From positions 160,001-224,000 of IMG/VR virus record IMGVR_UViG_3300031088_000782: DNA of 64,000 nucleotides; one strand, 5' to 3'. Below the pieces are notes generated by a model. The model was not told the origin of the DNA. It ran no database searches and saw only the letters and a list, made by a program, of their open reading frames with translations. Origin of the DNA: a virus. Taxonomy: Duplodnaviria > Caudoviricetes. The position numbers and the translations under genes are program-made. Positions within the stretch are counted from its first letter, which is position 1; each line of letters opens with the position of its first letter. Shown piece after piece: positions 552 through 15,766 of the stretch.

Positions 552-625
552 GGGGCTGTAGTCAAGTGGGTTAAGACATCTCACTCATAATGAGAGGATC
601 GGGGGTTCAAGTCCCTCCAGCCCTA
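552..625 (+). tRNA. tRNA with CAT anticodon, elongator type (Ile2 if lysidine-modified, otherwise Met)
   Basis: GGGGCTG/CAGCCCT acceptor (paired 1:72), TCTCA-CTCATAA-TGAGA anticodon arm; lies directly upstream of tilS. Confidence 0.9.
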
Positions 626-638
626 CCCATTAAATATT

Positions 639-682
639 AAGCGGCAATCAGAATAATAAACGTTCTGATTGCCGCTTTTTTT
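639..682 (+). terminator. Intrinsic terminator after tRNA-CAT
   Basis: AAGCGGCAATCAGAA / TTCTGATTGCCGCTT stem followed by a T tract. Confidence 0.8.
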
Positions 683-698
683 GCTTCCTTTTTTACAA

Positions 699-727
699 TT
701 GACAAATTTCTTCAAAAATGATAAAAT
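699..727 (+). promoter_or_regulatory. Promoter of tilS
   Basis: TTGACA, 17-bp spacer, TGa-TAAAAT. Confidence 0.7.
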
Positions 728-797
728 ATTAACAGATTAAGTAAGTATAAGAATAAATATAAGAAATTTTTGCAAAGGTTCGAAAAGGGGTTTTAAC

Positions 798-1766
798 GTG
801 AGAAAAGATCATTACACTATGGTTGCTCGTAATTCAGTTAAAAACGCGCTACAAGACATTTCTGCGTCCTCTCACGTAGGTTTTGGTTGTTCTGGCGGCG
901 CTGATAGTCTTGCTTTGATGTTTTCTCTTGCTACTCTTTACAAAAAGGACCGCGCTAAGCTGGTTCATGTGATTATTGTCGATCATCAACTTCAAGATAT
1001 TACTGCAGAAATTTCTCAAAAAACTGCTGATCTTGCAGAGTCTTTGGGATTCAATGCTCATATTATTCCTATTGAAATTGTTTCTACGAAAGAGGGCATG
1101 GAGAGCGATGCTCGTAAGGCTCGTTATGAAGCTTTTGAAAATGCTATTGGTGAATATAATCTTGAATCTTTTTTGATTGGTCATACTAAGACTGATCAGG
1201 CTGAGCAGGTTTTTCTTGGTATGCTTCGAGGTTCTGGGACAAAGAGCCTTTCTGGGATTCCTCAAAAGCGTGGAATTTTTGTTCGTCCTTTCTTAAATTC
1301 TCTTTCTCGTGAGGATACTCAAAAAGTTTGTGAAGAGAATAATTATGATTATTGGTGCGATCCTCATAATGACTCTACCGAATACCGTCGTGTTATTGTT
1401 CGCAAAATGATTAAAGATGTTCAAAAAGAAACTGGTCAAAGTATTGTAGATCCTCTTGTCAGAACTTCTCAAATGAATGCTGAAGATACAGAGGCTCTTG
1501 ATTTCTATGCTGATATGGCTTTTGATAATTTTGTCAAATCAAATTGGGACGTTAATGTTCTTGCTGATTCTCCTGCAGCTATTAGAAAACGAGCTTATCG
1601 TAAGATGATTATTGGGATTGGATCTGATAGTGATTCTGTTGATTTTGAATTGACTAATCGTGTGGATGATTTTGTTGTCAAGTGGAGGGGGCAAAAGGCT
1701 GTTTTCTTCTCTAATGGCGTTCGCGTTAAGAGGGACGATGGATGCTTAATTTTCTCTGTTGAATAA
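798..1766 (+). CDS. tilS: tRNA(Ile)-lysidine synthetase
   Basis: PP-loop SGGADS, DHQLQ, ARKARY, GHTKTDQAEQVFLGMLRGSG, DPHN; C-terminal WRGQKAV..GVRVKR resembles actinobacterial TilS. Confidence 0.93.
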   Translation: MRKDHYTMVARNSVKNALQDISASSHVGFGCSGGADSLALMFSLATLYKKDRAKLVHVIIVDHQLQDITAEISQKTADLAESLGFNAHIIPIEIVSTKEGMESDARKARYEAFENAIGEYNLESFLIGHTKTDQAEQVFLGMLRGSGTKSLSGIPQKRGIFVRPFLNSLSREDTQKVCEENNYDYWCDPHNDSTEYRRVIVRKMIKDVQKETGQSIVDPLVRTSQMNAEDTEALDFYADMAFDNFVKSNWDVNVLADSPAAIRKRAYRKMIIGIGSDSDSVDFELTNRVDDFVVKWRGQKAVFFSNGVRVKRDDGCLIFSVE

Positions 1767-3617: not shown

Positions 3618-3691
3618 CGCGGGGTGGAGTAGTTAGGTAACTCGTATGGCTCATAACCATAAGATCGTAGGTTCAAATCCTACCCCCGCCA
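3618..3691 (+). tRNA. Initiator-type tRNA-fMet(CAT) with atypical anticodon stem
   Basis: CGCGGGG 5' end with C1:C72 mismatch; anticodon arm TATGG-CTCATAA-CCATA; T-loop TTCAAAT. Confidence 0.88.
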
Positions 3692-3721
3692 CTAAATCTG
3701 ATTGAAAAATTGGATTTTATT

Positions 3722-15688: not shown

Positions 15689-15762
15689 CGCGGGATGGAG
15701 TAGTTAGGTAACTCGTGTGGCTCATAATCACAAGATCGGGGGTTCAAATCCCTCTCCCGCCA
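15689..15762 (+). tRNA. Initiator-type tRNA-fMet(CAT), second copy, atypical anticodon stem
   Basis: CGCGGGA/TCCCGCC with C1:C72 mismatch; TGTGG-CTCATAA-TCACA; D-arm identical to the 3618 copy. Confidence 0.86.
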
Positions 15763-15766
15763 CAAC

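Follow-up and report, generated by a model that had tools for sequence, protein, structure and literature searches.

A lysidine synthetase gene without AUA codons in a huge phage-like element and the depletion of ATA across phage tilS genes

Can a gene whose product enables AUA decoding be written so that its own translation does not depend on AUA? This question is raised by a locus at the start of a 64,000-nucleotide stretch of viral DNA (the window), which covers bases 160001-224000 of IMG/VR record IMGVR_UViG_3300031088_000782, a single sequence of 309,534 bp with 35% G+C. A tRNA gene with anticodon CAU (552-625) is followed there by tilS (798-1766), the gene for a tRNA(Ile)-lysidine synthetase (TilS), and tilS contains no ATA codon. 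An earlier reading of the letters alone, hereafter the sequence-only reading, took the pair for a cassette of tRNA-Ile2 and its modifying enzyme with a bootstrap design, in which the enzyme can be translated before AUA decoding is boosted. We found the bootstrap idea to be partly supported: the support comes from the family of phage tilS genes, while the single gene of this element is insufficient to carry it.

The codon counts given by the sequence-only reading were exact. All 21 Ile codons of tilS are ATT (ATC 0, ATA 0), and TTA accounts for 2 of its 21 Leu codons, beside CTT 13, TTG 4, CTA 1 and CTG 1. As a background we called 297 non-overlapping open reading frames (ORFs), covering 84% of the genome, in which 19.4% of Ile codons are ATA, a frequency of 13.6 per 1000 codons overall. 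Against this genome mean, the probability of finding no ATA among 21 Ile codons is 0.011, and that of finding ATT 21 times out of 21 is 4e-5. The statement that neighbouring genes use ATA also held (2/18, 4/10, 6/16 and 4/16), although they include a GIY-YIG and an HNH homing-endonuclease gene, which make a poor yardstick.

To look beyond this genome, we collected tilS genes in two scans of IMG/VR, which yielded 103 of the more than 550 TilS loci there, each with flanks of up to 6 kb. The phage test set held one locus per protein cluster at 70% identity (53 loci), and the expected ATA count was taken from flanking ORFs of at least 150 codons. All 10 of the IMG/VR products tested passed the cut-off of the lysidine synthetase model TIGR02432, and the genes around these tilS genes are phage genes, such as those for type II topoisomerase subunits, a CHAP domain protein and an intein-split thymidylate synthase. 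Together, the 53 tilS genes contain 131 ATA codons where 323.6 were expected (ratio 0.405). ATA fell below expectation at 49 of the 53 loci and was absent altogether from 17, and the deficit was also present in 14 of 15 clusters formed at less than 40% identity. Avoidance was weaker in one-domain TilS genes (ratio 0.52) than in two-domain ones (0.34).

Relative to neighbouring genes, phage tilS is depleted about 2.5-fold in ATA, and the depletion is specific to that codon. No other synonymous codon had a ratio as low as that of ATA; TTA came next at 0.83, and the non-ATA codons spanned 0.83-1.6, with AGA at 0.96, AGG at 0.99, CTA at 1.10 and the remaining A-ending codons at 0.88-1.03. The two other Ile codons rose equally (ATT 1.29, ATC 1.31). 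When flank genes were drawn at random 5000 times, the mean ratio was 1.085 (standard deviation 0.088, minimum 0.755), and the largest flank genes had ratios of 0.88-1.18. The per-gene median was 0.21 for tilS compared to 1.02 for 257 flank genes (Mann-Whitney p = 2e-9), and a model with AGA/AGG, TTA and A-ending use as covariates still expected 290 ATA codons (ratio 0.45). The codon ratios, the controls and the covariate model contradict general A-ending avoidance, membership of an optimised class, gene size and donor composition as causes. A full-text search of the literature found no statement that tilS avoids AUA, and the codon-specific rule is apparently unreported. On balance, we lean towards codon-specific selection for a phage tilS without AUA, acting across at least 15 deeply diverged phage lineages and not general in bacteria, by which production of the enzyme would never rest on the decoding that it brings about.

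Several results weigh against this reading, beginning with those from the element's own genome. Among 163 genes with at least 15 Ile codons, 12 contain no ATA, although tilS is the only one that is all ATT. A binomial regression on A-ending use in other codon families expects 1.7 ATA codons in tilS, P(0) = 0.17, and genes of similar A-ending use lead to an expectation of 2.1, P(0) = 0.11. The gene also retains 2 TTA, 3 AGA, 2 AGG, 2 CGA and many CAA, GAA and AAA codons, so codons for which the element has tRNAs do occur in it. The low expectations are in line with a different account, which we regard as possible but doubtful: ATA would have been lost as a by-product of a T-ending gene class, shaped either by how strongly the genes are expressed or by C-to-T mutation of the coding strand linked to transcription, without any selection linked to TilS. 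At four-fold sites, tilS has T at 0.725 (third highest among genes with enough sites) and A at 0.11 (among the lowest of the 297 ORFs). Its preference for T runs across all amino-acid families, and AGA (3/20 vs 44% genome-wide, P = 0.006) and TTA are few as well. On a combined index of ATA, TTA and AGA, tilS scores 0.081 against 0.261 for the genome, the 16th lowest of 199 genes. This dialect is common to other genes behind the same class of promoter; among the first protein genes that follow a strict promoter motif, 4 of 6, tilS included, lack ATA (a small sample, p = 0.017). Phages with two codon dialects are, moreover, a known pattern.

Locally, the missing ATA belongs to a T-ending dialect that avoids TTA and AGA as well, and no Ile-specific design follows from the gene alone. 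The sequence-only reading had itself counted an absence of ATA within the normal range of comparable genes against its design, and this is what a per-gene count across the genome gave locally, with tilS inside the range of a TTA/AGA-avoiding class. The by-product account nevertheless explains the local gene and not the family pattern, since the 53 other phage tilS genes are depleted in ATA only, with AGA and other A-ending codons near 1.0 and both remaining Ile codons raised to the same degree. It is also at odds with the make-up of the element's most T-biased genes, which are functionally mixed and show no clear expression class: a T2SSE-type ATPase, a signal peptidase, a MoxR-like ATPase, a homing endonuclease and unknowns. 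On the same grounds, we rejected the T-ending dialect as one functional class. As in the two-class codon usage of the T4 type, a subset of the genes in this genome avoids codons read by its own tRNAs. UUA, AGA and AUA, which are read by the three tRNAs upstream of the tilS start, are the least-used codons in tilS and about 16 other genes.

Within the phage set, the points on the opposing side are five loci whose tilS is rich in ATA (L005, 8/26; L173, 23/45; L179, 12/25; L180, 9/16; L206, 12/22) and the finding that some 6% of flank genes are likewise almost without ATA. Phages equipped with an AUA kit alone may possess a small class of ATA-free genes, to which tilS may belong very often without being unique in this respect. 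The flank genes that set the expectations are, in addition, our own ORF calls and not curated. L180 shares its contig with L009, and in the flanks of L173 and L179 ATA makes up ~60% of Ile codons.

Bacterial tilS genes provided the last of these points. Eight bacterial loci (Acinetobacter-like, Listeria, Enterococcus, four gut-sample contigs and E. coli K-12; TilS of 432-648 residues) showed no depletion, with 42 ATA codons compared to 25.5 expected, which rules against ATA avoidance as a universal property of bacterial tilS. A set of 23 other metagenomic bacterial loci with low G+C at third codon positions did contain few ATA codons (11 vs about 42 expected), with ATA the lowest of all codons and AGA and GGG enriched. 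We rejected broad depletion among bacteria, however, because these depleted loci (among L025-L105) all come from a single lineage of low-GC freshwater Actinobacteria with tilS-hpt-ftsH synteny, whose tilS products form 13 clusters at 70% identity but only 4 at 60%. The contrast between phages and bacteria fits the bootstrap logic: a daughter cell would inherit TilS together with modified tRNA, whereas an incoming phage would start without TilS where AUA decoding is scarce.

GenBank records of TilS labelled as phage were used as bacterial controls only. Three of them, CAKLQH020000014.1, OR846750.1 and OR846589.1 (L225-L227), are probably bacterial DNA: the 'Acinetobacter phage' record has only chromosomal genes around tilS (pheT, himA, rho, trxA, accA, proC and polA), and the unannotated Listeria and Enterococcus 'phage' records carry long tilS genes of bacterial type.

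The ATA-poor tilS of the actinobacterial lineage bears on another explanation, namely that the phage gene was captured from an ATA-poor bacterium and has not had time to shift, at synonymous sites, to the codon usage of the element. Actinobacteria, together with Acidobacteria, also supply the nearest cellular relatives of the enzyme, which are of type II. We consider such a donor relic very unlikely. The cellular homologues are only 37-42% identical to this TilS and identity within its phage clade falls to 49%, a divergence at which no trace of a donor's synonymous codon choice would survive. Furthermore, the extreme T-ending usage of tilS is unlike that of any donor seen, and other codons that are rare in bacteria (AGA, AGG and CTA) are undepleted in phage tilS.

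As an overall explanation, we think it probable, though far from firm, that the region is an AUA-decoding kit of a huge phage-like element. TilS would add lysine to C34 of tRNA-Ile2, forming lysidine and switching the tRNA from Met/AUG to Ile/AUA. The element uses AUA heavily and has no tRNA-Ile(UAU) among its 66 tRNA genes, so the kit would add to a decoding capacity that is kept low in bacteria. Since some AUA decoding must exist in the host beforehand, phage TilS would boost this capacity instead of starting from nothing. The tRNA and tilS would each be transcribed from a separate sigma-70-type promoter close to the consensus, and both promoters belong to the class that serves the element's tRNA array. 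In an AUA-free, UUA/AGA-poor dialect the translation of tilS would not need to wait for capacity that it and its neighbours supply. From sequence we infer three of these steps, which are lysidine formation on the 552-625 tRNA, early timing and selection as the cause. With some reserve, we favour AUA-independence as the selected reason for an ATA-free tilS.

None of the parts of this kit is new in kind: TilS and tRNA-Ile2 are known from phages, and the codon dialect resembles that of T4. Phages carry tRNAs for codons that are poorly read by the host, and a parallel to an enzyme gene that avoids its own codon exists in amino-acid biosynthetic enzymes, which are depleted in their cognate amino acid. 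Phage T4, whose tRNA cluster and two codon-usage classes were reportedly described by Cowe and Sharp in 1991, resembles the element in having tRNAs for host-rare codons, including a CAU-encoded tRNA-Ile, a gene subset that avoids those codons, and homing-endonuclease genes among the tRNA genes. T4 is not known to have a TilS, however, whereas here the gene that would activate one such tRNA itself belongs to the avoiders; across phage tilS genes, unlike T4, avoidance narrows to AUA alone. The occurrence of TilS and its substrate tRNA together in many phages suggests that AUA decoding can be a self-contained viral module. If the selection reading is true, AUA decoding would limit translation during infection, and selection would act on single synonymous codons of one gene. 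The ATA-free pattern could then flag other genes that are needed before a phage's decoding kit works.

The identities of the two genes, as given by the sequence-only reading, were borne out. The forward-strand frame at 798-1766 almost certainly encodes TilS, judging from its 322-residue product. It opens with a GTG codon, 7 bases behind a purine-rich ribosome-binding stretch, AAAAGGGG (783-790, read from the sequence, same strand), and the start at 798 is backed by the N-terminus MR-x-x-HYTM that is conserved in homologues. The product matches PF01171 (PP-loop family) at 1.4e-35 and TIGR02432 (lysidine_TilS_N) with 134.7 bits against a cut-off of 93.6, while among sister PP-loop models nadE reached only 17 bits and TtcA gave no match. 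Among 24 aligned homologues the PP-loop S32-G-G-A-D-S37 does not vary, and the conserved stretch of the catalytic domain reads HTK-T-DQAEQ in this protein. Relatives in the PDB are 3A2K (G. kaustophilus, 4e-17), 1WY5 (A. aeolicus, type II, 317 residues; match over residues 21-273) and 1NI5 (E. coli).

Type II TilS, the form without the acceptor-stem-reading domain CTD2, makes up ~30% of TilS enzymes (PMC12514573). We assign the viral product to this two-domain type because of its length and because no further domain was detected; type I relatives have 432-464 residues. Pfam did not detect PF09179 (CTD1) in it, although alignments with bacterial TilS that bear PF09179 cover 95-98% of its length. 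It shares with the type II enzymes of A. aeolicus (1WY5/2E21/2E89), Mycobacterium smegmatis and Helicobacter pylori (PMC12514573) an N-terminal PP-loop catalytic domain, a probable single C-terminal domain, a length of ~320 residues and the lack of CTD2. It differs in being virus-encoded, in how the conserved stretch of the catalytic domain reads, in its distance from any cellular enzyme and in falling into a clade of its own. That phage clade, headed by this TilS, comprises about 45 protein clusters that are 49-89% identical, some of them on contigs of 540-730 kb, the longest measuring 727 kb. The nearest cellular enzymes, at 37-42% identity, match over their full length (320-residue enzymes within a range of 318-329) and carry PF01171 and PF09179. 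No clade member other than the record itself was found in an IMG/VR search, and none was among the matches listed in a metagenome scan, which were ordinary bacterial TilS. A scan of species genomes for the clade returned one actinobacterial metagenome-assembled genome (MAG) only, at 39% identity, and a pattern scan with the tRNA sequence found no match.

The forward-strand tRNA gene at 552-625 (anticodon CAU at 586-588; Rfam RF00005, 69.6 bits, canonical numbering) is an elongator tRNA that we read as tRNA-Ile2, the minor isoleucine tRNA. ARAGORN reports it as tRNA(cat) at 551-629. In the Rfam alignment its acceptor stem is G1.U72, G2-C71, G3-C70, G4-C69, C5-G68, U6-A67 and G7-C66, followed by A73. 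The marks of an initiator are absent: position 1-72 is a G.U pair without mismatch, the D stem has U11-A24 and not A11-U24, and the anticodon stem lacks a run of three G-C pairs. Silva et al. (2006; PMC1635315) classified 1070 CAU tRNAs and found that G3 or A3 with C70 or U70 rules out Met and initiator formylmethionine (fMet) tRNAs and indicates tRNA-Ile, often together with C4-G69 and C5-G68, whereas A11-U24 with G12-C23 marks fMet. Of these Ile2 discriminators, G3-C70 and C5-G68 are present here, but position 4-69 is G-C and not C-G. Burkholderia TilS requires G3:C70 according to PMC12514573, a paper that also compares AUA use and TilS kinetics.

ARAGORN labels this tRNA Met from its anticodon, which would agree with its being a second elongator tRNA-Met that stands beside tilS by chance, with phage TilS modifying host tRNA-Ile2 only. 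The predicted separation of the two genes into different transcription units points the same way, and an array of 66 tRNA genes makes some tRNA neighbour inevitable. We nevertheless judge this highly improbable. According to PMC1635315, G3-C70 is a complete negative discriminator for Met and fMet, and among the seven CAU tRNAs of the element this pair is confined to the one at 552-625. A CAU tRNA at genome position 152299 already has the pattern of a Met elongator (C3-G70, U4-A69), and the remaining five have a 1-72 mismatch, four of them with the fMet D-stem pairs as well. Of the three CAU tRNAs in the actinobacterial MAG, one has G3-C70, and it agrees with the viral tRNA at G3, G4 and C5. 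CAU tRNAs that adjoin TilS in other phages have the same stem type, and at L016 the first six pairs are identical (GGGGCU). The G3-C70 rule, its sole occurrence among seven CAU tRNAs and the matching stems in the MAG and in phages are the reasons why we read the 552-625 tRNA as tRNA-Ile2, very probably a substrate of TilS.

ARAGORN and Rfam suggest different ends for this tRNA. In the ARAGORN alternative, an acceptor stem of 8 pairs (U551-A625) is followed by discriminator C626 and an encoded CCA at 627-629. Read canonically, the sequence continues with CCCA after A73, and CCA would have to be added after trimming.

An elongator CAU tRNA does lie upstream of tilS, as the sequence-only reading had it, but not directly before the gene. 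The gap is 172 bases long and contains, on the forward strand, a hairpin resembling an intrinsic terminator (639-677; 16 pairs, 7 of them G-C, then a T run) just 3' of the tRNA, followed by a sigma-70-type promoter-like site (699-727; TTGACA, 17-nt spacer, TAAAAT, TG before the -10 element). A similar forward-strand site precedes the tRNA (492-521; TTGACA, 18-nt spacer, TAAAAT, TG before the -10 element), and each of the two has 11 of 12 consensus matches. The promoter and terminator sites are consensus predictions. With the hairpin and the second promoter-like site between them, the tRNA and tilS are neighbours in separate predicted transcription units, not an operon, and 'cassette' was an overstatement. 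The site before tilS is of the same class as those ahead of the tRNAs.

Proximity of tilS to a CAU tRNA recurs in other phages. Of 54 diverged phage loci, 15 have a CAU tRNA within 6 kb of tilS and 11 have one on the same strand within 50 bases, mostly just 3' of a one-domain TilS; nearly all of these adjacent tRNAs have G3 or A3, a further point against a chance neighbour. One-domain TilS proteins consist of the catalytic domain only (200-225 residues) and scored above the TIGR02432 cut-off where tested. At the one-domain loci L013, L014, L016-L019, L197-L199, L202 and L206-L209, the CAU tRNA lies 2-47 bases away on the same strand. These modules resemble ours in that enzyme and substrate tRNA are adjacent, on the same strand and of the same acceptor-stem type. 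They differ in that the tRNA almost abuts TilS and is probably on one transcript with it, whereas here a two-domain TilS has its tRNA upstream, with a predicted terminator and promoter in between.

Other large phages with their own lysidine synthetase and tRNA genes are the Pseudomonas jumbo phages MIJ3 and PA5oct (PMC6892783) and pelagimyophages (PMC7029224); no role was assigned to TilS in these phages. In the portions of these two papers that we used there is no mention of a partner tRNA-Ile2 or of the codon content of tilS, whereas in the present element the tRNA is adjacent and tilS is ATA-free. Green-algal plastids keep a tilS-trnI(CAU) module, a likeness in that a small genome retains both enzyme and tRNA for AUA decoding, although in an organelle and not a virus. 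AUA use is only loosely tied to retention of that module, and the sections of the plastid study available to us are silent on AUA within tilS (PMC13494906).

The tRNA-Ile2 gene is part of a large array. The whole record has 66 tRNA genes, one transfer-messenger RNA (tmRNA) and one signal recognition particle (SRP) RNA. At the start of the window, tRNA genes for Leu(UAA) (78-162), Arg(UCU) (306-379) and the CAU anticodon stand in succession, each with a near-consensus promoter-like site of its own (TTGACA / TG-n-TAnnnT). Downstream of tilS lie the GIY-YIG and HNH homing-endonuclease genes. A megablast search of the first 8 kb of the window against GenBank phages gave no match.

The five initiator-like CAU tRNAs are at 3618-3692 and 15689-15763 in the window and at genome positions 145864, 147042 and 158547. 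Two of these have the classic CGCGGGG stem, with a C1xC72 instead of a C1xA72 mismatch and an anticodon stem that has just two G-C pairs at its foot; the other three have A1xC72, and one of them is apparently truncated. A UUA-anticodon tRNA, named 'tRNA-Stop' by ARAGORN, lies outside the window at genome 152966-153037 and would read the stop codon UAA; the stop codon of tilS is TAA.

A G1.U72 wobble takes the place of G1-C72 at the top of the acceptor stem in 14 of the 66 tRNAs, including the tRNA-Ile2, the Met elongator and one Ile(GAU) tRNA. Examples are at genome 146804, 147749, 149629, 152299, 160078, 160306 and 171473, in addition to the tRNA at 552-625 in the window. The same pair is present in several IMG/VR phage tRNA-Ile2 genes that adjoin TilS (L013, L016 and L199). 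Outside the window, the array also contains four tRNAs with A34, for Pro(AGG), Arg(ACG), Leu(AAG) and Thr(AGU), at genome 145968, 148047, 151554 and 153389, of which only Arg(ACG) is usual in bacteria. They would read the T-ending codons CCT, CGT, CTT and ACT, which predominate in tilS with shares of 6/6, 10/20, 13/21 and 10/14.

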